Of a stretch of DNA of 24,000 nucleotides, positions 5,431-22,717 are shown piece by piece (positions within the stretch are counted from its first letter, which is position 1; each line of letters opens with the position of its first letter). The position numbers and the translations under genes are program-made. Below the pieces are notes generated by a model. It made no database searches, was not told where the DNA came from, and saw only the letters and a program-made list of their open reading frames with translations. Source of the DNA: Candidatus Heimdallarchaeota archaeon (GTDB taxonomy: Archaea; Asgardarchaeota; Heimdallarchaeia; Heimdallarchaeales; Heimdallarchaeaceae); NCBI GenBank assembly GCA_023705905.1, contig BPTK01000014.1, forward strand, positions 10,740-34,739, given 5' to 3'.

Positions 5431-6627
5431 TTATGTCTCTTTCTCTGTCGTTTTTTCTTGCTCTTCCCATTGTGAATAGAGATCATCCAATAGAACCATT
5501 AAATCACCCATTATTTCGACTGATTTTGGTTTAATTATTCCATTTTCTATTATCACTTCTATATCACTAGACCCAACTAACTCAAGAAAGATTTTCATGA
5601 ATTCTTTTTCGGAAATCTCTAATAAATCAATTGTTTGCTTGATGTTTACCTCTCCATAAACCTTTAGAATTCCCTTAATCTGTTTAATCTGAGATTCTCT
5701 TAAATATGACTGGTCTATGTTAGTTTCTTTTTTTATGAAATTTATTGAATCGCGTATTTTACTTAATGCTGAAGCTTCAATCTTTCTTATAAGAGAATTA
5801 TCGCAGAATAATCTAGTTTTGGTATTATATTCAAAAACTGTTAAATTTGATAGCCCAACCAATGGTGAAATATCAAGCTCATTTAAATTTGAGCAATTAA
5901 CACCCAATTTATTTAATTTTAAACATTTCTGCATAGGTTTTAAGTCAAGTTCACTCAAATTATTATTCGACAAATCTAAATCGTCTAGATTCACAGCATT
6001 GTTTAAAGGTGTAAGATCAATAGATCCTATTTGATTATTGGATAAATCAAATTTCGTTAATCTTTCACAGTTCGTTAATGGTTCTAAATCTATCTCATCC
6101 AATTTACATTGAGTTAGATTTAGCCGTTCTAAATTACTAAGAGATTTGAATACTCCAAGGTCTAATTTAGTGAGAGGGGTCCAACTAAGATCCAATATTT
6201 TGAGATCACGGCATTCTGATAGAGGTTCAAAATCAATTTTTTCAATATCGCTAAATGAGAGAGAGAGGTTCTTCAACTTGACACATTTTTGTAAAGGTTT
6301 CAAGTTCAATTCTTTTATAGGATTACCTATTAGAACTAGAATTTCAAGTGAATTACATTTACTTAAGGGGCTTAAATCTAATTTGTAAATGTTATTCTCA
6401 TATAGATTCAATTCCAATAAATCTGTACAATGACGAACAGGTTCAAGATCAATATAACTTAATCTATTGTCATTGAGATAAATTTTCTGTATTTGAGGAC
6501 AGTTTCTTAATGGAGATAAATCTACTTCATGCCAGCCTTGTCCCTGAAAATCTAAAATCTTAGAAGTTTCACAATCTTTTTCTATTAGATAAGTTTCTCC
6601 ATCTGACAAACAAGTAAACTTAACCAT
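5431..6627 (-). CDS. leucine-rich-repeat protein with C-terminal winged-helix-like module and LLDDLYSQWEE tail
   Basis: About 11 tandem 22-residue LRRs with the pattern L..L.L..N.I..(I/L)DL.PL..C, for example LDLSPLSKCNSLEILVLIGNPIKELNLKPLQKCVKLKNLSL. No N-terminal signal peptide or TM segment. The C-terminal 75 aa resemble the shared module found in three neighbouring proteins. Confidence 0.8.
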   Translation of the reverse strand: MVKFTCLSDGETYLIEKDCETSKILDFQGQGWHEVDLSPLRNCPQIQKIYLNDNRLSYIDLEPVRHCTDLLELNLYENNIYKLDLSPLSKCNSLEILVLIGNPIKELNLKPLQKCVKLKNLSLSFSDIEKIDFEPLSECRDLKILDLSWTPLTKLDLGVFKSLSNLERLNLTQCKLDEIDLEPLTNCERLTKFDLSNNQIGSIDLTPLNNAVNLDDLDLSNNNLSELDLKPMQKCLKLNKLGVNCSNLNELDISPLVGLSNLTVFEYNTKTRLFCDNSLIRKIEASALSKIRDSINFIKKETNIDQSYLRESQIKQIKGILKVYGEVNIKQTIDLLEISEKEFMKIFLELVGSSDIEVIIENGIIKPKSVEIMGDLMVLLDDLYSQWEEQEKTTEKET

Positions 6628-7658: not shown

Positions 7659-7719
7659 GTTTGCAGTCTTCTAGGCAAAAGATATTTTAAGCTTGATTCA
7701 TTATCCTCTATGGTTGACA

Positions 7720-8406
7720 ATGGAATTAATCTTAACTGGGAAAAAAAAGAAGAAAAATTTTCGTAAAAAAATCAAGGACGATATTAGAAAGTTAGATCTT
7801 ACAAAAAAGAAGTTAACAGAGATAGACCTTACACCGCTCGAGCAGTGTCATCAGATCTATACAGTTAAGTTGAGTAACAATAAAATCTCTTCAATCAATC
7901 TAACTCCTCTAAGCAAATGTAAATCTCTTATCAGCGTATATCTAGAATATAATCCTCTTTCTTCAATTAATTTAGCTCCTCTTATCAAATGCCCAAAACT
8001 TGACAAAATTTCTTTTTCCAAGAATACTAAAATTGAATGGTTAGATGAAGAGTTTGACGTTTTTGCTATCCCAAGAGGGTTAAGACCTTATCTCAACCAA
8101 ATTAAAAAAGCACATGGTTCTTATGTTACTGAAACAGCAGAGCAAAAGCAAAAAATTGCTCACGAAAATGCTCCTGAGAAAATTACTGCTCTTCTCAATG
8201 AATTCCGCCCTGGTGTTCCTGTCAATGTTAATAGGGTTGCAGCACTAGCCGAAATACCAGTTGACGTTACCAAATCAATTATTTTAGAGATATTGGAACA
8301 CATGCCTGACGTTGGAGAATTCCTAGAACTGGAAGAGGTTTTTATTCGTAAAACAGAAGCTGAGATAGAGATAGATAAACTCTTAGATCAATTTCAAGAA
8401 TGGTAA
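7720..8406 (+). CDS. short leucine-rich-repeat protein with the same C-terminal winged-helix/LLDQFQEW module
   Basis: Three to four LRRs of the same Cys-containing type (IDLTPLEQCHQIYTVKLSNNKISSINLTPLSKCKSLISVYLEYNPLSSINLAPLIKCPKL). The C-terminal module ALLNEFRPGVPVNVNRVAALAEIPVDVTKSIILEILEHMPDVGEFLELEEVFIRKTEAEIEIDKLLDQFQEW is paralogous to that of 6792-7658. The ATG at 7720 is preferred. The ORF track uses a TTG at 7693. Confidence 0.7.
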   Translation: MELILTGKKKKKNFRKKIKDDIRKLDLTKKKLTEIDLTPLEQCHQIYTVKLSNNKISSINLTPLSKCKSLISVYLEYNPLSSINLAPLIKCPKLDKISFSKNTKIEWLDEEFDVFAIPRGLRPYLNQIKKAHGSYVTETAEQKQKIAHENAPEKITALLNEFRPGVPVNVNRVAALAEIPVDVTKSIILEILEHMPDVGEFLELEEVFIRKTEAEIEIDKLLDQFQEW

Positions 8407-8437: not shown

Positions 8438-9091
8438 TCAAAGGAACCTATGTTCTAAAGGTATTCCTAGTCCTGTTAGTGAAAATCCTTCGCTCGACAA
8501 ACCCATTTTAGTTAGCAAATCAACAACTGATGATTCTATCATCATCGATAGCTCTTCTCTACTTATTTTCTGTATTTCCTCGATGGAATATTGTCCCGAA
8601 AGTTCTCTCATTGCTTCTTTTATTATAAACAACACTTGCATTCTCATTTCTTTGGAAGAGAATTGGATTGAATCTTTTAAAATATTCAAGCAGAATACTT
8701 TCGGAGCGGAAATAGAAATCGATAGAGAACCTGACGCACCTATTTGTACATTATCTTTGGTTAATACTCCTTGTTCTTGAGGTATTCCCCACTTAACATT
8801 AAAAGACTGTCCTTCCAAGAAAACAATCTTCAAACCTTCTGTTCCTTTCTTCCTTTCTATTTTAAACATACCACTAGCTAGTTCGTCAATTATCTGCTCG
8901 TTTTCTATTACTACTGCTTTCTCAGCTATCTTTACTATCATCCCCTCTGTTTTCTTCAAATCAAAATCCTTTTGCCAGTTTTCATGAGCATGTGGATAAA
9001 CCCATGCAATCGTTTCTGAATCTCTTTCGCTTTTGATTATTCTTTTATCGTCAGAAGGACTAAAATCCTTTTTAATTATGAAAGACATCAT
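8438..9091 (-). CDS. SPFH/band-7-like protein (YdjI / COG4260-like)
   Basis: The motif order matches my recollection of the B. subtilis YdjI family: ETIAWVYP (compare DTLLWRYP), a beta-rich core with WGIPQEQGVLTKDNVQIGASGSLSISI (compare WGTPNPITLRD...RAFGIYSYRI), and a C-terminal helical part ending GFSLTGLGIPLE (compare SSFVVENISLPEE). A strong SD (GAGGTGA) sits just upstream of the ATGATG start, 11 nt after the stop of the upstream gene. Confidence 0.6.
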   Translation of the reverse strand: MMSFIIKKDFSPSDDKRIIKSERDSETIAWVYPHAHENWQKDFDLKKTEGMIVKIAEKAVVIENEQIIDELASGMFKIERKKGTEGLKIVFLEGQSFNVKWGIPQEQGVLTKDNVQIGASGSLSISISAPKVFCLNILKDSIQFSSKEMRMQVLFIIKEAMRELSGQYSIEEIQKISREELSMMIESSVVDLLTKMGLSSEGFSLTGLGIPLEHRFL

Positions 9092-9102
9092 TTCACCTCT
9101 AT

Positions 9103-10137
9103 TTATTGTTCAATTTCATAAAGCCCTGGGAAGTAGATCTTGTTTCCAGAACTGTAATCCTCATCAACTATTGCTAACCCTGTATCCTCTAGTTTCTTTA
9201 TCATTTGCAACACTCTTTCTATTGGCAGTTTGCATTCATTAACAATTTCTTCTCTTGTAGTATATCCCTTCTCCTTCGCTATTTCCATAATGTCTCTATG
9301 AATACTTGAATCATCGGCGAGAACAATAGTCATAGGAGTGTTGGAAGTCTTTTCTATAACACCAAGAATCCCTGAATCTTGTAGTTCAATAGCTACTCTT
9401 TCAAGATCTTCTACCTTAAACTCTACGTCAGGATATCGTTTTTGGAATATTTCAATGGTTTGGGAAAATTCTATAGATTTGATATCCTTCTCCATTAGAC
9501 TTAAACAAGTCTTGTGGAAATATTGTTTCAGTTTTTTGAAGTATTGCTTCTTATTGAAAAGTAAGGGTCTTGTTAATTCTTCATATTCATGGATTAGACC
9601 AAGAGTTTCAAGATAAGCTATATCACCTTCAAAGTCCTCACCTAATTTGCCAAAAAGGTCTTGAGAGGGTGCTAAAGTGTTAGTTAATACTCTTATCTTC
9701 AGCAAATCATCTATCTTTTGAACAGAACTCAATAGAAGAACTATTAGATCACGTACAGCTCCTTCACCTAAGGATAAGATGGTTCGCTCTAGATTTTGTA
9801 ATCCAACAGAAAAATCTTCAAATCGTGATAGTAATAAGAAATCTAGAATAATTATGGTTTCATGATGAAGAGTTAACTTTGTGGTATCCGTTTGTTCTAT
9901 TTGAGAGACAGTAGCAATTAATGTTTCAAATTGTGTTTTAACACCATCAACTGTAGTCTTTAGTTTTAGAAGAAGTTTCTTATTTTCTATTTTCAGATTC
10001 TTCATTATTGATAGGATATAATTTCTAACATCAATTATTCTTGAGTTAATCTCTAATTGAATTTTAGATTCATAACCATGAAATTCATTTACATTCGGAG
10101 GGAACTTAAGAAACTCTAAAGACATTTTTCCTGTCAT
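9103..10137 (-). CDS. helical protein with two C-terminal winged-helix domains
   Basis: 344 aa. The N-terminal 200 aa or so are predicted helical or coiled. The C-terminus carries two WH-like units: VEDLERVAIELQDSGILGVIEKTSNTPMTIVL and YTTREEIVNECKLPIERVLQMIKKLEDTGLAIVDEDYSSGNKIYFP. It appears co-transcribed with the SPFH gene (11-nt spacer containing an SD). Confidence 0.55.
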   Translation of the reverse strand: MTGKMSLEFLKFPPNVNEFHGYESKIQLEINSRIIDVRNYILSIMKNLKIENKKLLLKLKTTVDGVKTQFETLIATVSQIEQTDTTKLTLHHETIIILDFLLLSRFEDFSVGLQNLERTILSLGEGAVRDLIVLLLSSVQKIDDLLKIRVLTNTLAPSQDLFGKLGEDFEGDIAYLETLGLIHEYEELTRPLLFNKKQYFKKLKQYFHKTCLSLMEKDIKSIEFSQTIEIFQKRYPDVEFKVEDLERVAIELQDSGILGVIEKTSNTPMTIVLADDSSIHRDIMEIAKEKGYTTREEIVNECKLPIERVLQMIKKLEDTGLAIVDEDYSSGNKIYFPGLYEIEQ

Positions 10138-10299: not shown

Positions 10300-13200
10300 C
10301 TACTTTTTCTTCCCTGTTCCTGTTTCTTCCCAGTTAGAGAATTGTTCTAGTAAATCATCAATAGCTGTTGTCATGTCTTCTCTCAACTCTGCACCTTCAA
10401 CTCTAGCTTCAAAGATTATCTCATCTCCTTCTATTCTATGAGGATATTCTAATGAGTAGATGTTTAACCAAGCTTTTAGTGATTTTTCGGTTTCAAACTC
10501 TACCAATGGTTTAAGTCTTGAAGTTGTTATTCTAGAGTAAGTATCTCTAATCTTTGCCAAACGGTCTAGTTTTTGATTATTGATTGTAGAGTTACTAATA
10601 ATTGGTGTTAATTCTTCAATTACTTTCTCAGTATTTTTTGAAGTTTCATGAACTATTGTAATTTTATCTTCAACTAAAGAAGTAATCGAGGAACTAAATG
10701 TTGAAGGAAGTTCAGCTAGAATCTCTCTGGAAGCACTAATATTGTTTCCTAATTCTTTTGCATTAGATAAGAAAGAAAGTAACTGAACATAACTAAATAA
10801 TACAGGTTTGAACCCTTTTTCTGACCAATTATGAGCTAGTCCGGATATAAGATCATTTGTAAAAGCATCAAGATTTTCAGCTGTTATCAAATTTATTGTA
10901 TCTAGTATTGTGCATCTGAACTTGTCTTCTAAGAAAGTTCTAGTACTTTTAAGAACACTTTCATATGTACTAATTTTATCTTTGCTAAATGACCTCTTTT
11001 TTGAATAAATGAGCATTAAATCTCTTGTTAAATCACTCAAAGATATTGTAAATTGATTGATTCTATCTATTGAAGAAGTTAAATCAAAAATAGTTGAAAT
11101 ATTAGTGAAAATGTCTTTAAATTCCTTCATTAATAAAGTATCATGCTTTCCTTGAAAGTTGTTCATGGTTCTTCTTAAGAGTAATTTCCTCTTTCTTGAG
11201 CGTATTAAACTTACAACCACAAGAGTTACTAAAGATAGAACAATTAATGGTAGAACAGCATAATATAGTATTATTTCAAATGTATTTAGATAGTTATCAA
11301 AACTTATTGGATTTTGATCATTTTGAACTTCCCATCCATCACTTCTTCCGTCCTCATCTGTATCGGGATTGGTTGGACTTGTAAAATAAAGATTGACTTC
11401 ATCACCATCGGTTAATCCATCATCATCAGAATCACTGTTATTGGGATCAGTCGAATAAGTATTTATCTCCGCTCCATCGGTTAACCCATCATCATCTGAA
11501 TCAGCATCATTAGGATCTGTATTATATGCACTTATCTCCGCTCCATCGGTTAATCCATCATCATCAGAATCAGCATCGTTAGGATTTGTAGAATTTTGAT
11601 ATTCTTCAAGATTAGTCAACCCATCAGTATCTAAATCACTAGAAGCATCATCAATTAGGGGATTGAGATCATTAGCTACTTCCCAACCATCAGGCATAGA
11701 ATCTGTATCGCTATCGTTATTACCAGGATCTGTGCCTTGGAGATATTCTTGAAGATTAGTTAAACCATCTGCATCTAAATCAAAAGCAGAATCATCAATT
11801 AAGGTATCTAGACCATATAAATTCTCCCAATCATCAGGCATATTATCACTGTCCTGATCCAAAGGTATATCATAAAAAACAATGTTACTCCAGTCAGAGA
11901 GCAAACCGTCTTCATCCATAGCTCTAACTCTAAAAAATTGAATCGGATCAGCACCAAGAATAACACTATAAAGCTGTATTGTCAAATAAGTTACATTATT
12001 TATTTCCCATCTTGCATAAGCTGCAGAACCTTCCCAGGGGGAGGTGACATCTGATTCTTCTACTATATATGAAACAATATATCCATCCAAGTCTTTAGAA
12101 GAGGACCAAGTTAGATTATACATTGAAGGTACTGTTTCCGGATGTATTTCTTCTAACTGAGGAGTTGAAGGTTTCGAGGAATCAACCGTATATTCAAATA
12201 TCTTTGACAGAGAGACTTTTCCAGATGTATCATTAATTTCGAAATAATATTGTATAGTTGTTTGATAAGGTAATTGTTGCTCAAGAATGTTATTTACGTA
12301 CAATGAAGCACCCAAATAATTTCCGATAGAAGATGTCCAAATTCCTCCTTGTATCTTATATGTGCAAATTACTGTGTCAACTTTCACGTCATCAACAATT
12401 CTTGATTTAATTGCAACCCTCCAAGATTCTACTAAATAATTACACTCTACAGAATTAATTGTAGGAGGTAGTAAATCATCATATTTAGTTGGGTAAGCAT
12501 CAAATGAACCCGCGCTTCCTTCAATAGAATAATTACCAACTTCGTTCCAATCTGACCAACAATTACCAAGAAACAGGCTTTCTTCATACCACATATTGTT
12601 TATTCCATAATCACTAGCTTGTATATTTCCACCTTTGTTACCTGCAAAGATATTTCCGTAAAAAATATTATTATCGGAACCGTAAGTTACGTAAACACCA
12701 TAATCAACGCTTGATAGAAAAAGATTATTTGATATATTACTATCATCCACATGGGACAATATTAGCCCAATGGCTTCCGAATTAATAGTATTGTTATAAA
12801 ATGTCAAATTATTTACATTTTGTGCATTAATAGCAGTAAAACGTCCATTTTTCACAGAGCAATTTGTTAATGTAATCGTCTCTGAATTCGCAATTTGTAT
12901 TCCATTCCAATTATTATTGGAATGAATATTTCGCAGAGTAGTATTAATACAATCTAATATCAAAACACCTAGATCTGAATTTGATACATCAATATTTAAA
13001 ACGGTAATATTTATACAATTTAATAAAAACATTTGTCCATAATCAACAGAATCTAACGTTTGATTTTCAATATTTGTACAATATCCAAAAGCTTTGCTGT
13101 TTATGCTATTATTGTATATGAAATATTTTAAATAATTTGCAATATTTGCTTCGTAAATAAATAAACCATCATTAATCAAAGTATTGTTACTTATTGTTGT

Positions 13201-13896
13201 ATAAGTTGAAATTGAAATTGAGATTCCATATCTTGAATTATTTTCACATGAATTTAACGTGATATTTGAACTTCCAGAAGCAACTAACTGAATGCCGATA
13301 TCATTATCTGTACAAGTGTTATTTATAATCTTGCAAGAAGGAGAATAATCTACAAAAAGACCATATTCTGAGCATTTTACAAAAGTGTTATTTATTACCT
13401 GAGCTGTACCTTGCGCAGTATTACTAATAAATAACCCATTTTGTCTAGCTTCAAAAAAACAATTTTGTACAATAAAGTGTTTTGTAGTTAACTTAATTTG
13501 TAAAGCATAGTCTAAGTGAGGAACTACTATTTGATAATTTTCAATTAAGTACGGAGCCTCTTCAGTTCCAGAGCCATTAAAACCATTGTCTACAAAATCT
13601 TGGTCTGATATTATTAGTAATGATTCATACAAAGTTGTAACATATGAACTTTTTATTTCTGATAATGTATCTGAAACATTTTTACCATCAAGAGGAGAAT
13701 TGAATGGTTTGATGATATTTTCAGTTGAGATAAAACTTCCAGAATTTGTTAAATTTCTACTTTCTTCAGGAAATATTAAGAACGATACCAAAGAATACAA
13801 TATTAACATTAACAAAAGAAAGCTTATTTTATATCTAGTAAATTTTTTGTAAATAGTATTTAAAAGAGCAAGATATTTATGAGTCTTAACATTCAT
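10300..13896 (-). CDS. giant single-pass receptor-like surface protein: parallel beta-helix (PbH1) + TSP3-like Ca-binding repeats + TM + cytoplasmic domain with shared WH/LLEQFSNWE tail
   Basis: N-terminal anchor ISFLLLMLILYSLVSFLIF. It has more than 10 PbH1-type repeats (NNTFVKCSEYGLFVDYSPSCKIINNTCTDNDIGIQLVASGSSNITLNSCENNSRYGISIS...). D-rich repeats follow (DSDNMPDDWE, DLDADGLTNLQEY, DADSDDDGLTDGAEI x3). A second TM segment IILYYAVLPLIVLSLVTLVVVSLI is followed by RSRKRK. The cytoplasmic region of about 290 aa ends in AIDDLLEQFSNWEETGTGKKK. Confidence 0.85.
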   Translation of the reverse strand: MNVKTHKYLALLNTIYKKFTRYKISFLLLMLILYSLVSFLIFPEESRNLTNSGSFISTENIIKPFNSPLDGKNVSDTLSEIKSSYVTTLYESLLIISDQDFVDNGFNGSGTEEAPYLIENYQIVVPHLDYALQIKLTTKHFIVQNCFFEARQNGLFISNTAQGTAQVINNTFVKCSEYGLFVDYSPSCKIINNTCTDNDIGIQLVASGSSNITLNSCENNSRYGISISISTYTTISNNTLINDGLFIYEANIANYLKYFIYNNSINSKAFGYCTNIENQTLDSVDYGQMFLLNCINITVLNIDVSNSDLGVLILDCINTTLRNIHSNNNWNGIQIANSETITLTNCSVKNGRFTAINAQNVNNLTFYNNTINSEAIGLILSHVDDSNISNNLFLSSVDYGVYVTYGSDNNIFYGNIFAGNKGGNIQASDYGINNMWYEESLFLGNCWSDWNEVGNYSIEGSAGSFDAYPTKYDDLLPPTINSVECNYLVESWRVAIKSRIVDDVKVDTVICTYKIQGGIWTSSIGNYLGASLYVNNILEQQLPYQTTIQYYFEINDTSGKVSLSKIFEYTVDSSKPSTPQLEEIHPETVPSMYNLTWSSSKDLDGYIVSYIVEESDVTSPWEGSAAYARWEINNVTYLTIQLYSVILGADPIQFFRVRAMDEDGLLSDWSNIVFYDIPLDQDSDNMPDDWENLYGLDTLIDDSAFDLDADGLTNLQEYLQGTDPGNNDSDTDSMPDGWEVANDLNPLIDDASSDLDTDGLTNLEEYQNSTNPNDADSDDDGLTDGAEISAYNTDPNDADSDDDGLTDGAEINTYSTDPNNSDSDDDGLTDGDEVNLYFTSPTNPDTDEDGRSDGWEVQNDQNPISFDNYLNTFEIILYYAVLPLIVLSLVTLVVVSLIRSRKRKLLLRRTMNNFQGKHDTLLMKEFKDIFTNISTIFDLTSSIDRINQFTISLSDLTRDLMLIYSKKRSFSKDKISTYESVLKSTRTFLEDKFRCTILDTINLITAENLDAFTNDLISGLAHNWSEKGFKPVLFSYVQLLSFLSNAKELGNNISASREILAELPSTFSSSITSLVEDKITIVHETSKNTEKVIEELTPIISNSTINNQKLDRLAKIRDTYSRITTSRLKPLVEFETEKSLKAWLNIYSLEYPHRIEGDEIIFEARVEGAELREDMTTAIDDLLEQFSNWEETGTGKKK
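11396..11590 (-). repeat. in-frame 69-bp tandem repeat (about 2.8 copies) encoding DADSDDDGLTDGAEI(S/N)xY(N/S)TDPN
   Basis: The unit ccatcggttaa(t/c)ccatcatcatc(a/t)gaatca recurs at 11405, 11474 and 11543, a period of 69 nt (23 aa). It lies inside CDS 10300-13896. Confidence 0.8.
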
Positions 13897-14150: not shown

Positions 14151-14720
14151 TTACTCAACTTCTTTTTTTTCCCAGTGCTCAATTATCAGATTCTGTTGTG
14201 CTGCCCACCAATAAAACACCTCTCTAATAAAGAAGTGACTTATTGTTAATCTTGGATTCCAAGCTTCATCTACTGTTTCCATGTGCTCATGACAGATCAT
14301 AACGAACTTTTCTCCGTTCTCTTCTTCCCAGATATTCTTCAAAAACACTTTTCCTGCATATTCTGCTATTGATTCTTCTGCAAAAGCTCTCGGGCATGCA
14401 TTTGGATAAGCACTTGGTAGAAGTATCACCATTTTGAACCTTATTTCTGGTTTAGATGGTACTTGCAAATATCCATCCCACTTCATAAAATTGTATTTTG
14501 GGTTCTTACTTGGAGCTAGGAAAAACCAACTTTTCCCTCCTTTTTTCTGTAAAAATTGAACATATTTTGCTAGATTTAATATTTCTATTTTCACTCTTTC
14601 CTGCCATTTTGGATGCTTTGGATTAATTTCAGTTAGTGCTTCGGGGAACTTAACTAAAACTTTCTCTGCTAGCGTCTCTTCCCATTTATTGTTTTCTTCT
14701 GTTATTTGAATGACCCCCAG
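14151..14720 (-). CDS. UFC1-like E2 (UFM1-conjugating-enzyme-like); start codon unresolved
   Basis: Matches to my recollection of human UFC1: WFFLAPSKNP (compare WFRLESNKEG), a catalytic-Cys context FVMICHEHM (compare GKICLTDHF), and no HPN motif. The ORF track starts at a GTG at 14594. However, the frame is open back to 14720, and the extension (..LAEKVLVKFPEALTEINPKHPKWQERVKIEILNL) aligns with the UFC1 N-terminal helix (..[33 protein letters not shown]). Confidence 0.8.
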   Translation of the reverse strand: MGVIQITEENNKWEETLAEKVLVKFPEALTEINPKHPKWQERVKIEILNLAKYVQFLQKKGGKSWFFLAPSKNPKYNFMKWDGYLQVPSKPEIRFKMVILLPSAYPNACPRAFAEESIAEYAGKVFLKNIWEEENGEKFVMICHEHMETVDEAWNPRLTISHFFIREVFYWWAAQQNLIIEHWEKKEVE

Positions 14721-14724
14721 TTAT

Positions 14725-14988
14725 TTATCCTACTATCCCACGGTTGATAACTTGAAAAGCTGTTCCGTATTTGTTTATTATCTCATCCACTGTAGAGTTG
14801 AAATCTGTTATTGTAAGAGTGTTACCCATTTCTGAAGATACAGCTATCTGCTCAGTTGCTATACTGAATTTCTTTGCAACTTCTACAACTAATTCGTGGA
14901 AAATTATTTCTCCTGGTGTTTCAAAAGGTATCTGTTTATGTTCTGTTCCAACAACATTTGTAAAGTATATTCTTTTTAGTGAACCCAT
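14725..14988 (-). CDS. UFM1-like ubiquitin-fold modifier with pre-exposed C-terminal Gly
   Basis: 87 aa. ELVVEVAKKFSIATEQIAVSSEMGNTL and the terminal AFQVINRGIVG-stop parallel human UFM1 [27 protein letters not shown] and ELRIIPRDRVG(SC). It has a single terminal Gly preceded by Val, as in mature UFM1. Confidence 0.8.
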   Translation of the reverse strand: MGSLKRIYFTNVVGTEHKQIPFETPGEIIFHELVVEVAKKFSIATEQIAVSSEMGNTLTITDFNSTVDEIINKYGTAFQVINRGIVG

Positions 14989-15026
14989 CTTTATCCCTTA
15001 TTTACAATCTATTTATTTGTGTTTCA

Positions 15027-16079
15027 TTAAATCTTTTTCGCTAAATCCTCAACAATTTGAGCGATTTTAGCGAAATTTTCTTCTTTTTCTATGTTATTTT
15101 TGGTATTTCTAATCGTTTTTAACATTAACTCCCTCTTTTTCTCATTTTTTGAAGAGAAATATTCTACTCTAAATTCCAATAGCTGAAGGAAAGAGAGTAT
15201 AGATTCTTTATCTTTCTTCGAAACATAAAATTTCCAATTTACATTATCATAAAGAAATTCTATTCTTACCGGTTTAGATATTTTTCCCTCCGCTATTATA
15301 GTGTTTTTCAGCTGATAATACATGTCATCTATGAATGCTTGTTTCATCAAAGGTTTTATTGAAGAGAGAGTAGTTTTTTCTTGTGCGCATATGTTAGCAT
15401 GCAAATCCATAGTAAACACCAAATCATCAGCTTTTGCCAGATTATCTTCAAACACTGAAAATCTTACAAAACACTCATTTCCTTCAAGTTTGTCTGTAGA
15501 TATTGATCCACTTAACAGATTTTGTTTGTATTCTATCTGTTTAACTTCAAAACTTTCCAAAATCTCCCTCATTCTAGATGAAACTGTTTGAATATCTAGT
15601 TCAGTTCCTTGAGGAAGATTAATTTTTGCCTTTGCTATGAATCTTATTGATTGTGGTACTTTTATTGAACTAACCTTTACTTTGATTTCCTCTACAGATT
15701 CATCTTTCAGTTGGTAATATTTTGTCTCTTTCACATTGGTAACTATTGATAAGAAATATGGATAAACTGATGCAAACTGTTTAACTGTGTGATTATCTGT
15801 AGAACTATGGAACACTTTTCCTACATGGGAGTGATAGATCCCCACTATCCCTATTCCCCTAGGAATTGCTTTTGAGATTTCCATTACCTCTTCTTGTGAA
15901 GGCTCAGCAATTATTTGATTTTGCATTTTATATTGTTTGCAGGGAACACTTGAGACGACGAATAGCTGATCCTTATAGTCATAACCTAGCAACCAACCAT
16001 AGATTTCTATTGTAGGAAAAGCATATGCATGTCTCTTTATATCGTCTGCTACACTATTGCAAACATTTACTTTACTCAT
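15027..16079 (-). CDS. JAB/MPN+ (JAMM) metalloprotease with about 220-aa C-terminal domain of unknown function
   Basis: N-terminal 130 aa or so contain the Glu of EIYGWLLGY and the motif YHSHVGKVFHSSTD, which is HxH-x6-S-x2-D, one residue shorter than canonical HxHx7Sx2D. The start ATG overlaps the E1 stop as ATGA at 16076-16079. Confidence 0.8.
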   Translation of the reverse strand: MSKVNVCNSVADDIKRHAYAFPTIEIYGWLLGYDYKDQLFVVSSVPCKQYKMQNQIIAEPSQEEVMEISKAIPRGIGIVGIYHSHVGKVFHSSTDNHTVKQFASVYPYFLSIVTNVKETKYYQLKDESVEEIKVKVSSIKVPQSIRFIAKAKINLPQGTELDIQTVSSRMREILESFEVKQIEYKQNLLSGSISTDKLEGNECFVRFSVFEDNLAKADDLVFTMDLHANICAQEKTTLSSIKPLMKQAFIDDMYYQLKNTIIAEGKISKPVRIEFLYDNVNWKFYVSKKDKESILSFLQLLEFRVEYFSSKNEKKRELMLKTIRNTKNNIEKEENFAKIAQIVEDLAKKI

Positions 16080-16942
16080 TCTTCTACCTCCTTTATTTCT
16101 TCTTCCAAATCTTCCATTAATTCTGACAATTCTTTGCCTTCGGTTAATTTTTCTATTTTTTCAAAAGATTGCTTTTTTTCCTTTTTAGAGAAGATTTTAT
16201 CTCCACAAACATGGCAGTTTGGATCATTTGGCATGGTTTGCTTTAGATAATGGTCTGTTAAAGCGTTAAACCCTATGTAATCTGGTATCGTTCCAAATTT
16301 CAGTAGATACTTTAAACTTATTTCAGTAACAAATGAAGCCACAATTGCTATTGTTGAAGGTAGAGAAGCTGTACAATCTTTGCCCTCTTTCTTCTCTCCC
16401 AAATCTATTGAACCTGTGCAAGCATAGCAAGCATTTTCTCGTGGTTTAACTAAGTGTACATACCCTCCTAAACCAGAACGTGTTGCTCCTGAATCTACGT
16501 ATGGACGATTAAGTTCGACACATTTACTGTTGACATACAATCTTGCTGGTAAATTATCCAAACATGAGATTGTGAGACTATTATCATTTATCAGTTCATC
16601 AAACTTCTCTTCGAAATCAGATGAACACACATCTACAAAATAACCATTTATTTCCACATCAGAATTTATTTTCTTTAAAACATCCTCTGCTGCTTTAACC
16701 TTTGTTTGACCAATCTGATCTACTGTGTAAAAGAGTCTATTTAGATTAACTTCTTCTACATAATCTAAATCGATAATATTCAACTCTCCCACCCCACATC
16801 GTGCTAGCATTTCAGCAGCTACACTCCCCACGCCCCCCACACCTATTATCAATACGTTCATTTTGGCAAGATCGAGCCAATCTACCTCTAGTCCAAACTC
16901 ACTCAATGATTTCAATCTTGTATAGCGATTTTCATCTTCCAT
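16076..16942 (-). CDS. UBA5-like E1 (ThiF/MoeB-fold adenylating enzyme of the UFM1 branch)
   Basis: [41 protein letters not shown] compares with recalled human UBA5 [41 protein letters not shown]. The catalytic-Cys block [30 protein letters not shown] compares with [30 protein letters not shown]. Zn-site pairs CYAC and NPNCHVC compare with CFAC and NPQCDDRNC. It has a single-domain, minimal E1 architecture with an acidic C-terminal tail. Confidence 0.9.
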   Translation of the reverse strand: [288 protein letters not shown]

Positions 16943-17134
16943 TAAGAAAACCTATTATCTTTATTCTAACCTAACAACTACTATTATATTGTAATCTATT
17001 TATATTTTTTTCATGAGTTTAAGATTCATAATCACAATTTTCAGATATTTACTTGTTAGATCTAAAATAGACTCAAACACTCTACCCTGAATCTTTAATA
17101 TTAACAAATATCTTGCAACCTCCTGTTCAATTCA

Positions 17135-17198: not shown

Positions 17199-18953
17199 TT
17201 AATCCTCCTTCTTCCTAAAACCTCTATTTAACAAAGAAAGAACAAAAACACCTGTGATTCCAAGTAAATACAAAGCATTTGTTTGCTTTAATTCTATATC
17301 TACTGTAAAATGAACAATTTTTGTTCCCAAATTACCTTTAATGTCTCTTGCTGTAATAGTAAACTCATATTTTCCACCAGTCAAATTGTAATAACTGTAT
17401 TTTATATAGTACGCATTACTCAATAGAGTTGAGCTGTCGTTAAGGATAAGATTAACTTCGTCAAGTTTAGAATTATCATAAATAGACCATGTTACAACAA
17501 TATCTTGAGAATCTAAGATTTCATTCTCTTCAGGAGATGTTATTGATATTAATGGTTCCAAATAATCTTCTAGGATTACTTCATCATCTATCAATATTAG
17601 TGGTTTTAAATCAGTATAGGTTACAGAATAGATAGGTATTCTTTCTATTCCATAGACATATTTTTGGAAATCTTCTGTGAAATCCAAACCAGAAAATTCA
17701 TTTAATTCTTGTAGTAGTTCTGGTGTAGACATGAGATTTTCTGGAATATCAGAACCTGCATATGTTAAATTGTATTTGCTTATCCACAATTGCATAAACT
17801 GATTTAAAGTCAAGGAAGCATTATTATAAAGAATTTTATGAAGATACAGAGCAAATATTTCCCCCTTTACATAATAAGTTCTTGCATTTGGAGTCATGAA
17901 ATAGACCGGCATGTCTACAAGAGGCAAATCTAATCCTTCAGCTATAAACTCATCATAATATGGAAGTTCGGCACTATTAATGAAATCAACAGCTGTAAGA
18001 GGTTCTAAACCAAGATTACCATAAAGCGAATCAAATCCTTCCAAGATCCATTTATCTGAATCTTCTGTAACTGGGTCAAAATACTCTCCTCCATAATTAC
18101 GTTCAACATTTATCACTGCACCTATCCATGCATGACAAACTTCATGGCTCTGTTTGGAACCTGATTGGCTCATCAACCACTCTATTTCCGAAGGTGGATA
18201 AAAAAGCCCTAAAGTATCTTCAGCTACTATTGCACCATCATTTTGTATTACTATTCTATATTCATCTATAGGAAAGTACAAGAATTTATACCATAGTCTG
18301 TTGAAGATGTTAAACCACTTATCAGCTACATTTTGCTTGTTGTATGACGTTGAAACCTCATTACCAAAAGCAATCACAACCTTAACTCCATGTAAGTGAT
18401 ATTCATAAACATCATGTGTTTCACTAGAATAGTTCAAATAATCTGCAGGATACCAGATGTATTTCCAATTACGGTACTCTTCCCAAGAAGAAGTAGGAGC
18501 GCTTATATCATTTGAATCAATAGGTGTCATTACTTTGATATTTTCTGATGTTGTTAATACAATCCCTTGATTATCTAGAACGTTTAAGTAATAGGTATAA
18601 TCTGTTCCATAAACATGGTTTGTAAAAGTAAATTCTGATGTTTCATTATCAAAAACACCGATCAGATCAATTCTATCAATGAATTTGCGATAAACCTTAA
18701 CTCCAGTGTAATCACCAATTATATCCCAACTTACTAGGACAGATGAATAGTTGAGAACATTCAATGAAAAATCATCAATAGATGGAACTGTAACAGATTT
18801 AAGTTGATTTATTAGTGACGAATTATTGCCCATCCCAATATTTATCGGAACAAAAGCTTGACAAACAAACCAAATTGAAAATAAAAAGAAAAGATATTTT
18901 CTTGATTTTTTAATATTAGAAAGCAGAAACAATTTCTTAGCAGCTGAACTCAT
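17199..18953 (-). CDS. surface-anchored gluzincin (M1-like, HExxH...EGF) metallopeptidase with FN3/Ig-like domains
   Basis: HEVCHAWIG followed 30 residues later by WILEGFDSLYG, comparable to the M1 pattern HExxHxW.G...W(L)NEGFA but with a longer spacer. N-terminal signal or anchor YLFFLFSIWFVCQAF. C-terminal TM segment ALYLLGITGVFVLSLL followed by NRGFRKKED. Beta-rich FN3-like N-terminal and Ig-like C-terminal segments. Confidence 0.7.
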   Translation of the reverse strand: MSSAAKKLFLLSNIKKSRKYLFFLFSIWFVCQAFVPINIGMGNNSSLINQLKSVTVPSIDDFSLNVLNYSSVLVSWDIIGDYTGVKVYRKFIDRIDLIGVFDNETSEFTFTNHVYGTDYTYYLNVLDNQGIVLTTSENIKVMTPIDSNDISAPTSSWEEYRNWKYIWYPADYLNYSSETHDVYEYHLHGVKVVIAFGNEVSTSYNKQNVADKWFNIFNRLWYKFLYFPIDEYRIVIQNDGAIVAEDTLGLFYPPSEIEWLMSQSGSKQSHEVCHAWIGAVINVERNYGGEYFDPVTEDSDKWILEGFDSLYGNLGLEPLTAVDFINSAELPYYDEFIAEGLDLPLVDMPVYFMTPNARTYYVKGEIFALYLHKILYNNASLTLNQFMQLWISKYNLTYAGSDIPENLMSTPELLQELNEFSGLDFTEDFQKYVYGIERIPIYSVTYTDLKPLILIDDEVILEDYLEPLISITSPEENEILDSQDIVVTWSIYDNSKLDEVNLILNDSSTLLSNAYYIKYSYYNLTGGKYEFTITARDIKGNLGTKIVHFTVDIELKQTNALYLLGITGVFVLSLLNRGFRKKED

Positions 18954-19144: not shown

Positions 19145-20242
19145 GTGAAGGTCGTTACTGGTAAAATTAAACTCGAACTTAGAAACGGTATATGTATAGA
19201 TTCCCCTCAGGTTTCAGAACTAGATAGAGACTTCCAAACTTATTATGGTTACATTTACAGTTCCTCTTTTGGTCGAAATTCTTCTGTTTTTGCTGAAATT
19301 ACTGAAATTAATTATGAAACAGACAATAACGAGTCGATTATCAAACTTGACAAGAGAATTGCTGGAGAGATAGCTGATAATGACATAGCAAGTATGATCA
19401 TCTCTCCTGCTCCTCCCCAAGCAGACACAGTTTTTCTCGCCATCCCCAGCTCTGTTGGTCTCCCCCAAGGAGATTGGACGAATATTGTTAAAGAGAGCAA
19501 TTTGGGTAAAATAGTCGATTATGGCAATAATCTTAGTTTCGTTGTTCCTTCAGAGATTAGAGAGCCTTATGTAGTTCAAAGTCAGATTCTCACCTCTCTT
19601 CCCTATCCTCCTGTTATCATCCACGAAGGCACTAAGTTTCAGATACTAAAGAAAGACCAAGCCAACCTTGCTGTTAGTTTGCAGAAAGGATATATTTCTA
19701 GGAGTAAACGAGCTAAAGATTTAGAGGTTAGAGTAGCAGCAGGTTACCATGAACAATTATTGGCTTTGAAAAATGGTCAGCTAGAAAATCTGGGAAGATC
19801 TCTGGAGTTCACTACTAAACCAAAGACAGCTTTTGAAGCTATAAAAACAGCTTTTACAACTTACTATACTATTGAAGAAAACGTCACCATTGATACTGAA
19901 ACCAATTTTGTTGGAAACATCATGTTCGCAACTAGTAAAGATCTGCAAAACATTCAACTTGTTGAAATGATTGTCAGTGGTAAGGATAATGCTGGCCTTT
20001 TAGCCATTTGGATTTATGGTGAAAATAGACCAGTTATTGAAGAAAAATTGCAAAAAGAAATTCTACCAAAAATAGGTATAGTAATTGAGGGGATGAAGGA
20101 AGGACCTGAACTAATTCAAATGTATTGTGCTGGAAATTGCGGAGAAATGTTGAAACTAGAAGATATGGCAGATAATGGTATAATTCAATGTCCAGCATGT
20201 GATACACCGAACATGATACCATCGAGATTAAGAATTCACTAA
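19145..20242 (+). CDS. stand-alone Cdc48/VAT N-domain-like protein with C-terminal zinc ribbon
   Basis: The first 170 aa or so follow the VAT-N pattern. IIKLDKRIAGEIADNDIASMIISPAPPQADTVFLAIP compares with VRIDSVMRNNCGASIGDKVKVRKV..AKKVTLAPI. QSQILTSLPYPPVIIHEGTKFQI compares with FKVVKTLPSKVPVEIGEETKIEI. No AAA+ Walker motifs follow. The C-terminus has CAGNCGEMLKLEDMADNGIIQCPACD (4 Cys). It has a GTG start with no obvious SD, so the start is uncertain. Confidence 0.55.
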   Translation: MKVVTGKIKLELRNGICIDSPQVSELDRDFQTYYGYIYSSSFGRNSSVFAEITEINYETDNNESIIKLDKRIAGEIADNDIASMIISPAPPQADTVFLAIPSSVGLPQGDWTNIVKESNLGKIVDYGNNLSFVVPSEIREPYVVQSQILTSLPYPPVIIHEGTKFQILKKDQANLAVSLQKGYISRSKRAKDLEVRVAAGYHEQLLALKNGQLENLGRSLEFTTKPKTAFEAIKTAFTTYYTIEENVTIDTETNFVGNIMFATSKDLQNIQLVEMIVSGKDNAGLLAIWIYGENRPVIEEKLQKEILPKIGIVIEGMKEGPELIQMYCAGNCGEMLKLEDMADNGIIQCPACDTPNMIPSRLRIH

Positions 20243-21039: not shown

Positions 21040-21260
21040 CTTTCCCCACTTATAGGTAGTGGCAAATAATTTTGAGGACTCTTCCCAACCCAAGAACGTA
21101 CAAGGTAGCATAGCAGTAAGTAGTAGCGTAGGGACTTTCAAGTTCTGGGATTACACCTCCAACACACAGTGTTAGTGGAGGTGAGAGGGTTCATCTCCTC
21201 ACCGGGACTCATTACTGGAGACAGTGTTATTGAGCACCTTAGGTACTCACTCCAGCTCCG
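21040..21260 (-). ncRNA. candidate TnpB-associated omega/reRNA scaffold
   Basis: This GC-rich stretch overlaps and follows the tnpB 3' end, which is where omega RNAs are encoded. Visible hairpins: cctcca-N14-tggagg (21156-21181), ggtgag-N12-ctcacc (21180-21203), ccact-N7-agtgg (21047-21063), and a longer-range pairing of cccaagaac (about 21089) with gttctggg (about 21141). The ends are not determined. Confidence 0.4.
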
Positions 21261-22717
21261 GGGGTAAGCAGATGACTCTGCTTTGTCTGTAGCCATTGGC
21301 TTAGGACAGGGAAGACACGAAAAGAACTGAGAGGGAAAAACTTCCCACTAACTAGATCTTTTATTGAGTTATACTTTGGTTGCAAAACATACTTGATTAG
21401 TCTTTTTGCTATGTTTTTCGCTCCATTCAAATCAGCATTAACTTGATATCCACAGTTGTTACAGATAAAGGTAGGTTGGTTGGGACGGGTAGTGTGATAG
21501 GAGCCACAGCGAGAACATGTAGAAGAGGTCCACGATTCACCAATAGCCAGGATTCTGTACTCTTCCCAACCATGAAGTGAGAGCTTGAATTTAAGTAATT
21601 CTGCAACTCTTCTATAATTCCATTTATGGACGCTTTTACGTGTTCGTGGTTGTTGGTTTCCTCGATAATGACTCTTACGGATGAGGATGGGAAAACCTAC
21701 CACCACATAAAGGTCATACCTTTTTCCAACCGAGAGAATGTATTTAACGAGTTTATTGACATAGGTGTGGTCAGTTAGATTATGTTTCGCTCTTTGCCTC
21801 TTTCTAAGCAATTTCAGTTTATAGAGAACTTGTTTTCTCTTTCCAAAACTCAAACTAGGTTTAGCTAAAATCTTCTGTAGTTTGGCGATTTCTCTTTCTT
21901 TTTCCTTTAGTAGTCTTTTTCGTGTCTTATCAGACCAAAATCTGATCTCGTGACGATTAATTACTCCTTTCGGAGTTAAGAGTGCACTTACTGCACGTTT
22001 ATTGATTCCTAGATCTATCCCCAGCACAGCTGGAGGATGAGAAGAAGAGTATTTATCTGGAGCATGAAGCAGTATGAAATGTACCCACCATTCCTTTTTC
22101 TTGGGATAGTAGAGCACTTCAAGAGCCTGTATTTTTCCTTGTTGGAGTTTATATTCGTGATAGGGAGAACATGCCAGAGGTAACCACAATTTTTCGTGAT
22201 TGCGAGTGTTGTTTTTCCGCGTATCTAGAGAGTCTCTTATCCCTACCCACCATCGAGCAATGGAGTTGGAAGGGGAACAAGTAAGAATGAACCTATTCTT
22301 ATTTACTGATTGTGTTCGAGGTATTTTCTTTGGTGAAGTTTTTTTAGCAGGGGAAGAGTTGAGAGCTTGTTGACTGTGATAAATAGCTGTTGCGTTGTCT
22401 CTACATTCTTGTAGTTCATCATGAGAGGAGCGAGGAAAGCGTTTCTTCAAATCATGTCTAACCTTTGGGCGAGATGTGTATGCAGTATTTTTTGTCGTTG
22501 TCAAGGTTAGTTGATCTAGTTTAGTTTTATTCACTTTTTTCTTCCTATTTTTTACACTCATAAGGTGATTTTCATTATGGTAAATTACCTTAAGAAAATG
22601 GTGAATAGTTCTTGAATCTCTTCCAGTAATCTGTTCTAATTTTCTCTTTTTCCGAGCAGTGAGCACTTCTGTTTTAATTTTCACCTTTACAGTTGTTCTC
22701 ACTCTATTTCTCGTCAT
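21239..22717 (-). CDS. tnpB: TnpB (OrfB/IS1341-type RuvC + zinc-ribbon RNA-guided nuclease family)
   Basis: RuvC-I VLGIDLGINKRAVS. Zinc ribbon TSSTCSRCGSYHTTRPNQPTFICNNCGYQV. RuvC-III NADLNGAKNIAKR. The basic N-terminal WED/REC-like region is typical of TnpB. Confidence 0.9.
   Translation of the reverse strand: MTRNRVRTTVKVKIKTEVLTARKKRKLEQITGRDSRTIHHFLKVIYHNENHLMSVKNRKKKVNKTKLDQLTLTTTKNTAYTSRPKVRHDLKKRFPRSSHDELQECRDNATAIYHSQQALNSSPAKKTSPKKIPRTQSVNKNRFILTCSPSNSIARWWVGIRDSLDTRKNNTRNHEKLWLPLACSPYHEYKLQQGKIQALEVLYYPKKKEWWVHFILLHAPDKYSSSHPPAVLGIDLGINKRAVSALLTPKGVINRHEIRFWSDKTRKRLLKEKEREIAKLQKILAKPSLSFGKRKQVLYKLKLLRKRQRAKHNLTDHTYVNKLVKYILSVGKRYDLYVVVGFPILIRKSHYRGNQQPRTRKSVHKWNYRRVAELLKFKLSLHGWEEYRILAIGESWTSSTCSRCGSYHTTRPNQPTFICNNCGYQVNADLNGAKNIAKRLIKYVLQPKYNSIKDLVSGKFFPLSSFRVFPVLSQWLQTKQSHLLTPGAGVST

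Follow-up and report, generated by a model that had tools for sequence, protein, structure and literature searches.

We identified, in a window of 24,000 nucleotides (~32% G+C) from a Candidatus Heimdallarchaeota archaeon, four consecutive minus-strand genes at positions 14151–16942 for an E1, a JAMM protease, a ubiquitin-like modifier (Ubl) and an E2. We put the probability at about three in four that they form an operon for a working UFM1-type Ubl conjugation pathway that is indigenous to Asgard archaea and a homologue of the eukaryotic UBA5–UFC1–UFM1 pathway. The genes had been proposed in an earlier reading of this DNA (the original prediction), and all four open reading frames (ORFs) were located where it had placed them:

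16076–16942, minus strand: UBA5-type E1, 288 amino acids (aa), adenylation domain only.
15027–16079, minus strand: JAMM/MPN+ metalloprotease (JAB), 350 aa.
14725–14988, minus strand: UFM1-like modifier (Ubl), 87 aa, mature form, ending ...NRGIVG followed by the stop codon.
14151–14720, minus strand: UFC1-like E2, 189 codons counted from the CTG at 14720.

These genes are real and not chance ORFs, because each has dozens of conserved homologues and their order recurs in ~30 Asgard genomes. The tight spacing originally described was recovered throughout. E1 and JAB overlap by ATGA, the coordinates of JAB and Ubl leave a gap of 38 nucleotides (nt), and the Ubl stop codon (TAA, 14727–14725) is separated from the E2 frame by 4 nt. 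In other lineages the junction between Ubl and E2 genes is an ATGA overlap or a few nucleotides. Joining of Ubl and E2 by frameshift or readthrough is excluded in the window, as both frames are closed by stop codons between the genes.

The E2 frame is open from 14720 to 14151 and offers no ATG, GTG or TTG ahead of a GTG at 14594. This GTG is the start given in a mechanically produced ORF list; we rejected it, as it would cut ~42 residues that align with the N terminus of UFC1. The position of the window's CTG (14720–14718) is occupied by GTG in an 87%-identical relative and by ATG in Ca. Heimdallarchaeum aukensis, and the same Gly-Val follows the start codon in both as in the window. Because orthologues start at the position of the CTG and the N terminus aligns with UFC1, we take the E2 gene to be 14151–14720, with a start codon that is non-canonical or mutated. 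The CTG could be a rare non-canonical start used with termination–reinitiation coupling; it could also stem from a point mutation of recent date or from a mistake in the assembly. Translation of the E2 is probably coupled to that of the Ubl. A candidate control element precedes the E1 gene:

16981–17010, minus strand: putative archaeal promoter comprising the TATA-like boxes ATATAAATA and AATATAAT and an A-rich tract.

The boxes, read from the sequence by eye, lie 40–65 nt upstream of the E1 ATG, and the arrangement suggests a promoter. Rfam and tRNA searches found nothing.

By its sequence the E1 is unambiguously UBA5-like. A phmmer search of all PDB sequences matched it to human UBA5 at 5.4e-55 (190 bits), with weaker matches to MoeB (5.3e-22, 82 bits), UBA6/UBA1 (~1e-20) and CBASS Cap2 (3.5e-7). 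When 5.8 billion proteins were searched, the best 120 homologues were Asgard proteins (Heimdall, Odin, Hodarchaeales, Loki, Sigyn) followed by eukaryotic UBA5, and among these 120 no bacterial or other archaeal protein came between the two groups. Identity with animal and plant UBA5 is 40–44% over the adenylation domain. The motifs singled out in the original prediction all align with human UBA5: the GxGxxG block (GVGGVGS), the catalytic-Cys block CTASLPST (KDC190TASLPST against GVC250AASLPTT) and both Zn cysteine pairs (C172/C175 and C243/C246). The catalytic Cys and both pairs are invariant across the Asgard E1 and eukaryotic UBA5 sequences.

Pfam classes the E1 only as ThiF (5.7e-49), and the NCBIfam equivalogs score far below their cut-offs (ThiF 124 against 275, MoeB 119 against 449, SAMP E1 88 against 450). 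PADLOC models of CBASS E1–E2 proteins match the adenylation core, the best PADLOC E1–E2 model reaching 73 bits. Thus the scores rank UBA5 (190 bits) over MoeB (82 bits) and PADLOC models (73 bits), and do not group the E1 with the MoeB/ThiF or Bil/CBASS enzymes against which the original prediction had asked it to be judged. Some Asgard E1s already carry the JGI label 'ubiquitin-like modifier-activating enzyme 5', and NCBI labels homologues 'HesA/MoeB/ThiF family'.

The E1 ends in an amphipathic tail, LSELMEDL in the window, and the tails of Heimdall, Odin and Hodarchaeales E1s align with the eukaryotic sequence L-E-D-L-M-x-x-M. In UBA5 this is the UFC1-binding sequence, which makes its contacts through L394/L397/M398/M401 (PMC8481289). 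The Asgard tail repeats its i, i+3, i+4, i+7 hydrophobic spacing, an alignment from which binding to the E2 is predicted.

The E2 is UFC1-like and not a canonical UBC, as had been proposed. Pfam scores it at 26.7 bits for UFC1 (cut-off 25) and at 16 bits for UQ_con (cut-off 27). A family profile of 15 sequences retrieved UFC1 chains only from the PDB (7e-7), with no canonical UBC at E<=1. Alignment by hhalign to human UFC1 spans residues 8–149 (E 1.9e-5, score 39.5, probability 77%), whereas that to UBE2D2 (5.8e-3, score 24) is not significant alone. We modelled the E2 and the Ubl with AlphaFold2 (AF2), each on an alignment of 15 sequences. The 25 best PDB matches of the E2 model (predicted local distance difference test score, pLDDT, 88) are UFC1, with template modelling (TM) scores of ~0.6 (TMq) and 0.65–0.72 (TMt) against ~0.35 for canonical E2s. 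In the model an N-terminal extension is present, a single long helix follows the Cys, and the two helices that end canonical UBCs are missing.

In the active-site region of the E2, Cys143, H144, H146, K128 and N129 are invariant in 15 E2s from Heimdall, Loki and Odin lineages. The hhalign alignment places Cys143 within 2–3 residues of C116 of UFC1 and H146 opposite H120, a correspondence drawn from sequence only. An 8-residue β-hairpin is inserted ahead of Cys143 (strands 126–132 and 138–141 in the model), and L-K-N, its Asn invariant, occupies the HPN position, where UFC1 has TAK. The claim of a UFC1-style Cys context lacking HPN is only partly right: HPN is lacking, though the Asn is retained and TAK is not present, and the Cys lies in an invariant MICHEHM behind an 8-residue insert. 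A W-N-P-R-L-T-I-S segment mirrors W-S-P-A-L-T-I-S of UBE2D2, within the alignment that is not significant alone. Altogether, the E2 looks intermediate between canonical UBCs and UFC1.

Precomputed PF08694 hits on Asgard E2s are already present in databases. Isolated fragments of the E2 C terminus (45–97 aa, 73–89% identical to the Loki E2) occur at four loci (L039 7001–7285, L040 7001–7183, L042 7001–7144 and L043 3438–3572), of which two belong to a metagenome-assembled genome (MAG) with the label Patescibacteria and one to a MAG of Hodarchaeota. Gene remnants, genes broken by an insertion, or contigs assigned to the wrong bin could each account for them.

Assignment of the modifier to the UFM1 type is supported by its predicted fold, the only evidence that discriminates. 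The 14 best PDB matches of the Ubl model (pLDDT 89) are all UFM1, with TM scores of 0.74–0.92 and root mean square deviations (r.m.s.d.) of 1.2–3.1 Å (Foldseek); ubiquitin and SUMO reach TM scores of ~0.6–0.7 at ~3 Å or more. The originally predicted UFM1-like Ubl thus stands as a predicted fold, and not as a sequence or profile match to Ufm1 (PF03671). The resemblance noted between its ..RGIVG end and that of UFM1 is borne out: the Ubl ends in NRGIVG, of the R-x-x-V-G type, and the terminal G-x-V-G is invariant across the family.

The window's modifier is encoded in its mature form. In other lineages the terminal Gly is followed by tails of 1–9 residues (+L, +QKVLY and, in Hodarchaeales, +QNKCGARYD), and elsewhere Ubl and E2 are joined. 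In-frame fusions of the form ...DRGVVG-(S/D)... make up six Lokiarchaeia protein clusters of 266–275 aa (NCBI, JGI, ENA, Logan), and one DNA locus that was checked has no stop codon between the two parts. Moreover, tblastn gave a single continuous Ubl–E2 match in nine GTDB loci, one of them apparently in the cultured Ca. Lokiarchaeum ossiferum, whose genome is complete. The fusion loci are:

L005 10001–10813; L018, L022, L027, L029, L030, L031, L032, L034 and L037: Ubl–E2 fusions in Lokiarchaeia and Hermodarchaeia.

A fused or tailed Ubl needs cleavage after the Gly, which points to a maturation role for the adjacent JAMM enzyme. Its motif is intact, with the Glu in TIEIYGW followed by YHSHVGKVFHSSTD, and the JAB domain occupies approximately residues 1–135 (Pfam Prok-JAB 9e-8, JAB 2.3e-6). 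The best PDB match is a Caldiarchaeum Rpn11-like protein (4e-4), followed by Rpn11; BilC gives just 0.15. A further ~140 residues past the catalytic domain are kept between Heimdall and Loki proteins (hhalign 1.6e-39 over ~270 columns), and no fold could be assigned to this non-catalytic C-terminal extension. In eukaryotic UFMylation, maturation and de-UFMylation are carried out by the cysteine proteases UfSP1/2. That a JAMM metalloprotease stands here where eukaryotes use UfSP, as first remarked in the original prediction, agrees with our analysis, in which it is the sole protease of the cluster. By analogy with the Caldiarchaeum Rpn11 homologue, which processes a ubiquitin precursor (PMC6043591), the JAMM enzyme is the obvious candidate for the maturation protease of tailed and fused Ubls.

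We surveyed the distribution of the genes by scanning 185,579 species-representative genomes (GTDB) with E2 peptide patterns. Nearly all of the 33 loci found are labelled Asgard (Heimdall, Promethearchaeota/Loki, Hermod, Odin, Sigyn, Hod) or unclassified archaeon, while two fragmentary hits sit in a MAG that bears the label Patescibacteria. Among named organisms, the Ubl and E2 have their nearest homologues in Candidatus Heimdallarchaeaceae, and the closed genomes of Ca. Heimdallarchaeum aukensis and endolithica are among these. A Logan-assembled contig of run DRR310881 contains the E1 sequence without any difference. Divergence of the cassette across Heimdall, Hod, Loki, Hermod, Odin and Sigyn lineages roughly tracks lineage.

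Mapping of the window and Loki proteins onto these loci revealed a conserved neighbourhood made up of a zinc-ribbon protein (ZNR), E1–JAB–Ubl–E2, and a winged-helix gene followed by Band_7_1/SPFH. The linkage survives rearrangements: the winged-helix/Band_7_1 pair lies either downstream of E2 or upstream of ZNR, and in Hodarchaeales the order is permuted to Ubl–E2–ZNR–E1–JAB. The compact four-gene cassette of the original prediction is a tight operon as claimed, and is not stand-alone but the core of a larger conserved cluster. One Promethearchaeota MAG, 33X4, holds two copies of the cluster (L016 and L019), and 1.7–2.5 kb of extra sequence lies between E1 and JAB in L017 and L019. The remaining members of the neighbourhood in the window, together with two genes that interrupt it, are:

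19145–20242, plus strand: ZNR, member of a ~363-aa family with a C-terminal CxxxC...CxxC zinc ribbon; inverted in the window.
9103–10137, minus strand: Vps22/SNF8-like (EAP30) tandem winged-helix protein, 344 aa.
8438–9091, minus strand: soluble SPFH/Band_7_1 protein, 217 aa (Pfam Band_7_1 1.5e-9).
10300–13896: NosD/beta-helix/TSP3-repeat surface protein, 1198 aa, with two transmembrane (TM)-like segments.
17199–18953: Ig-like/fn3 surface protein, 584 aa, with an N-terminal hydrophobic segment, between E1 and ZNR.

The two surface-protein genes split the neighbourhood in the window; the same neighbourhood is contiguous in Ca. H. aukensis.

ZNR adjoins E1 in most loci and always lies inside the neighbourhood, directly upstream of E1 in Loki, Hermod, Odin and Hodarchaeales. 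Its family is small, 47 clusters among 1.84 billion representatives in a single-protein search. The zinc ribbon is LysW-like (E 0.002), and the N-terminal region may be CDC48-N-like, judging by sub-threshold matches to VAT-N (0.28) and CDC48_2 (0.011–0.09). Variant architectures occur among P0166, P0183, P0195 and P0200: two ZNR members carry a TIR domain at the N terminus, and two have an EAP30/Vps36-type winged-helix pair in place of the zinc ribbon. The latter fusion links ZNR to the neighbouring Vps22-like gene. This winged-helix protein matches Pfam EAP30 at 6e-6, just below the cut-off, its family profile matches human SNF8 at 9e-5, and in its C-terminal winged-helix pair it shares homology with a Loki neighbour of 454 aa (hhalign 92%, 5e-7). 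The Band_7_1 gene always follows the winged-helix gene, a synteny seen in Heimdall and Loki loci. No membrane-spanning-like segment was found in the ZNR, winged-helix or SPFH protein. We also tried the winged-helix protein and ZNR as UFL1/DDRGK1-like E3s; Pfam and PDB profiles at E<=10 matched SNF8/Vps22 and zinc ribbons instead, and the idea was dropped.

Our observations establish what the parts are and how they are conserved, which catalytic motifs they carry, how the Ubl is tailed or fused, and how the genes are linked; from these we infer the biochemical steps, targets and neighbour roles of a pathway modelled on the UBA5–UFC1–UFM1 mechanism (PMC8481289). The UFM1-fold modifier would expose a C-terminal Val-Gly, already mature in the window and cut after the Gly from a tail or E2 fusion in relatives. 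The UBA5-like E1, presumably a homodimer by analogy with UBA5, would adenylate Gly87 and form a thioester on Cys190. Its C-terminal amphipathic helix (LxxLMxxL) would recruit the E2, allowing the modifier to pass to Cys143, from where the E2 would hand it to lysines of targets, probably with the help of ZNR and/or the Vps22-like protein as an adaptor/scaffold-type E3. The SPFH protein may be part of the same module. Finally, the Rpn11-like JAMM enzyme would mature precursors and remove conjugates, the role of UfSP in eukaryotes. The cluster contains no RING, HECT, RBR or UFL1. Because ZNR is constantly linked to the cassette, and because its N-terminal part occurs in a Rosetta-stone fusion with an EAP30-type pair, ZNR and the Vps22-like protein are our prime candidates, by way of speculation, for an adaptor/scaffold-type E3.

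Several results weigh against a working UFM1-type pathway homologous to the eukaryotic one. At the sequence level the Ubl is not significantly similar to UFM1: it has no Pfam hit at E<=1 and no significant phmmer match in the PDB, its family profile finds no UFM1 in the PDB at E<=10, and hhalign against human UFM1 gives a probability of 5%, with ubiquitin equally weak. The fold that sets it apart comes from a 15-sequence model. The match of the E2 to UFC1 is moderate (1.7 bits above the Pfam cut-off, probability 77%, TM ~0.6–0.7, r.m.s.d. ~4 Å). To bind and transfer UFM1, human UBA5 depends on a UFM1-interacting sequence (UIS) and a linker, and in the alignment no Asgard E1 has a counterpart of the eukaryotic UIS (E/D-W-G-I-E-L-V) or of the ~50-residue linker; the C-terminal tail is absent altogether in some Loki and Sigyn E1s. 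Searches of the window ORFs and conserved neighbours with Pfam and PDB profiles gave no E3_UFM1_ligase, DDRGK or UfSP match, and no cysteine-protease family was recognized in the other window ORFs of 100 aa or more. Moreover, transfer in the other direction, from eukaryotes to Asgard archaea, is possible instead of descent.

Three other explanations of the cassette were weighed against the UFM1-type pathway. A defence-type Ubl system like Bil, Bub or CBASS Cap2/Cap3, tagging viral or host proteins at infection and reset by the JAB, would have the identical four-part composition, as bacterial BilABCD, Bub and CBASS Cap2–Cap3 operons likewise combine E1, E2, JAB and Ubl in a compact arrangement without a RING. 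It would also accommodate the TIR domain on two ZNR-family members, the BrxC/BrxD-like, HEPN/nucleotidyltransferase and helicase genes that the cluster abuts in one Loki lineage, the TnpB-like gene near the cluster in the window and in L005, and the match of PADLOC CBASS E1–E2 models to the E1 adenylation core. We nevertheless hold it to be unlikely. The PADLOC match is at most 73 bits against 190 for UBA5, and no PADLOC model matches the E2 or Ubl; BilC resembles the JAB far less than Rpn11-type proteins do, and the modifier is a single domain, of predicted UFM1 fold. Hence the original prediction was correct that the composition mirrors Bil operons, in that the same four parts are present, whereas similarity specific to BilA–D (none from PADLOC for E2 and Ubl, 0.15 for BilC) did not materialize; the sequences show no specific affinity to the bacterial systems beyond shared superfamilies. 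A defence role would moreover predict a patchy, island-like spread, and the cluster is instead phylum-wide, from Heimdall and Hod to Loki, Hermod, Odin and Sigyn, with housekeeping-like synteny to conserved non-defence neighbours. A viral-contig search found no relatives on viral contigs.

The operon could alternatively belong to a generic early ubiquitin-like system of the Caldiarchaeum/Asgard kind, its resemblance to UFM1 and UFC1 reflecting shared primitive features, which we regard as decidedly unlikely. The Caldiarchaeum subterraneum and Asgard ubiquitin operons also encode an archaeal Ubl cascade with an Rpn11-like JAMM, and the nearest solved relative of the window's JAB is the Caldiarchaeum homologue, CsRpn11. 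The E2, too, retains the HPN Asn and the W-x-P-x-L-T-I-S segment aligned with UBE2D2, and the modifier profile is by sequence equally poor against ubiquitin and UFM1. Those operons, however, employ a Uba1-type E1, a UBC E2 and a RING E3. The window's E1 is UBA5-like, without the separate catalytic-Cys and UFD domains of Uba1-type E1s; its E2 profile finds UFC1 only, with hhalign scores of 39.5 for UFC1 against 24 for UBE2D2; the predicted folds favour UFM1 and UFC1 by wide TM margins; and the modifier has Val followed by one terminal Gly, as in UFM1, not Gly-Gly. The cassette has no RING E3, as already noted in the original prediction, nor does any window ORF of 100 aa or longer contain a RING, leaving the Rpn11-like JAMM as the only feature of the Caldiarchaeum operon recovered. 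Very improbable, finally, is a sulfur-carrier or adenylation system (MoeB/ThiF with MoaD/ThiS/SAMP) beside an E2-like gene. Pfam gives the E1 only ThiF, and NCBI names its homologues accordingly, but the NCBIfam scores for ThiF, MoeB and SAMP E1 are 2–5-fold under their cut-offs. There is no rhodanese domain, the modifier combines Val-Gly, in place of the Gly-Gly of SAMP/UbaA and MoaD/ThiS systems, with a predicted UFM1 fold, and a Cys-bearing E2, sometimes fused, and a JAMM are always present. The E1 by sequence, the Ubl by predicted fold and the E2 by profile and predicted fold thus side with UBA5, UFM1 and UFC1 and not with the other families that the original prediction had named for each.

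Likeness of the UFM1-type pathway proposed here to eukaryotic UFMylation extends to all three conjugation components. The E1s share the catalytic Cys in the adenylation domain and both Zn cysteine pairs, and the C-terminal tail of the Heimdall, Odin and Hodarchaeales enzymes may correspond to the UFC1-binding helix of UBA5. The E2s share the UFC1-specific N-terminal extension, the lack of the two C-terminal UBC helices and the single long helix. The modifiers share a UFM1 fold (predicted for the Ubl) and the ...R-x-x-V-G end, and in several Asgard lineages the Ubl is a precursor, as is pro-UFM1. Differences lie in the arrangement of the Asgard genes in one operon, the JAMM in place of UfSP1/2, an E1 without the UIS and long linker, an E2 with L-K-N for TAK and an 8-residue hairpin, and the Ubl–E2 fusions. 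Furthermore, the cluster lacks UFL1, DDRGK1 and CDK5RAP3 and has zinc-ribbon, Vps22-like and SPFH proteins. It is tempting to see the operon as a surviving prokaryotic ancestor of UFMylation, from which UBA5, UFC1 and UFM1 were inherited together and in which UfSP later replaced the JAMM, with ZNR and the Vps22-like and SPFH proteins as E3/adaptor and effector module. We offer this larger scenario tentatively and think it somewhat doubtful.

The modifier family is already known in Asgard archaea. The original prediction had suspected that UFM1-pathway-like genes might be listed in Asgard surveys, and Asgard Ufm1 has indeed been published (bioRxiv 2024; Nat Microbiol 2026; PMC12962969). By structure-based screening, that study recovered Ufm1 homologues from nine major clades of Asgard archaea and from no other prokaryote (Koestlbacher et al., PMC12962969). 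They are probably the same modifier family as the Ubl of the window. The study also remarks on hits that fall short of full length, which fits the Ubl–E2 fusions reported here; UBA5, UFC1, a protease and the gene neighbourhood go unmentioned in its main text. An earlier survey scored UFM1, UFC1, UfSP2 and C53 as exclusively eukaryotic, found UBA5 throughout prokaryotes and probably derived from bacteria, and assigned UFL1 and DDRGK1 an Asgard source, with homologues elsewhere in Asgard genomes (Picchianti et al. 2023, PMC10183829). UFL1-like domains have also been described in Asgard fusion proteins (Liu et al., bioRxiv 2020). We found no description of a UFC1/UBA5/UFM1-like Asgard operon in the literature outside subscription-only papers and supplements. 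The complete operonic cascade, the JAMM, the Ubl–E2 fusions, the intermediate E2 active site and the ZNR, Vps22-like and SPFH partners appear to be undescribed.

These findings bear on the origin and the mechanism of a pathway of medical importance. UFMylation is essential in animals, acts in quality control at the endoplasmic reticulum (ER) and ribosome, and is tied to neurodevelopmental disease. If the operon encodes a UFM1-type pathway as proposed, the origin of the whole E1–E2–Ubl core would shift into Asgard archaea, and a prokaryotic origin of UFMylation becomes directly testable through the operon. It is kept from Hodarchaeales to Lokiarchaeia, apparently also in the cultured Lokiarchaeum ossiferum, and amounts to a minimal set of small soluble proteins that could be reconstituted in vitro. 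Its natural intermediates, namely the Asn-retaining active site, the UIS-less E1 and the Ubl–E2 fusions, bear on how the unusual catalytic architecture of UFC1 evolved. The cluster also nominates the zinc-ribbon, Vps22-like and SPFH proteins as new pathway partners. Were the ancestor scenario true, UFM1-type tagging would have been linked to ESCRT-like machinery before eukaryotes.

Other genes were noted around the cluster. In one Promethearchaeota lineage (L007 10500–16890, also L008 and L009) it is followed on the opposite strand by a HEPN/nucleotidyltransferase gene, a DEAD/Cas3-like helicase gene and two BrxC/BrxD-like ATPase genes, a set that looks like a defence island. A 492-aa ORF at 21239–22717 of the window has a Cas12f1-like TNB domain (TnpB/IS200-605-type nuclease), and a related fragment lies near the Loki cluster (L005 16373–16807). 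At the other end of the window, leucine-rich-repeat proteins encoded at 5431–6627 (398 aa) and 7693–8406 (237 aa) flank an unannotated 288-aa ORF; to our knowledge, such proteins are uncommon in archaea outside the Asgard group.

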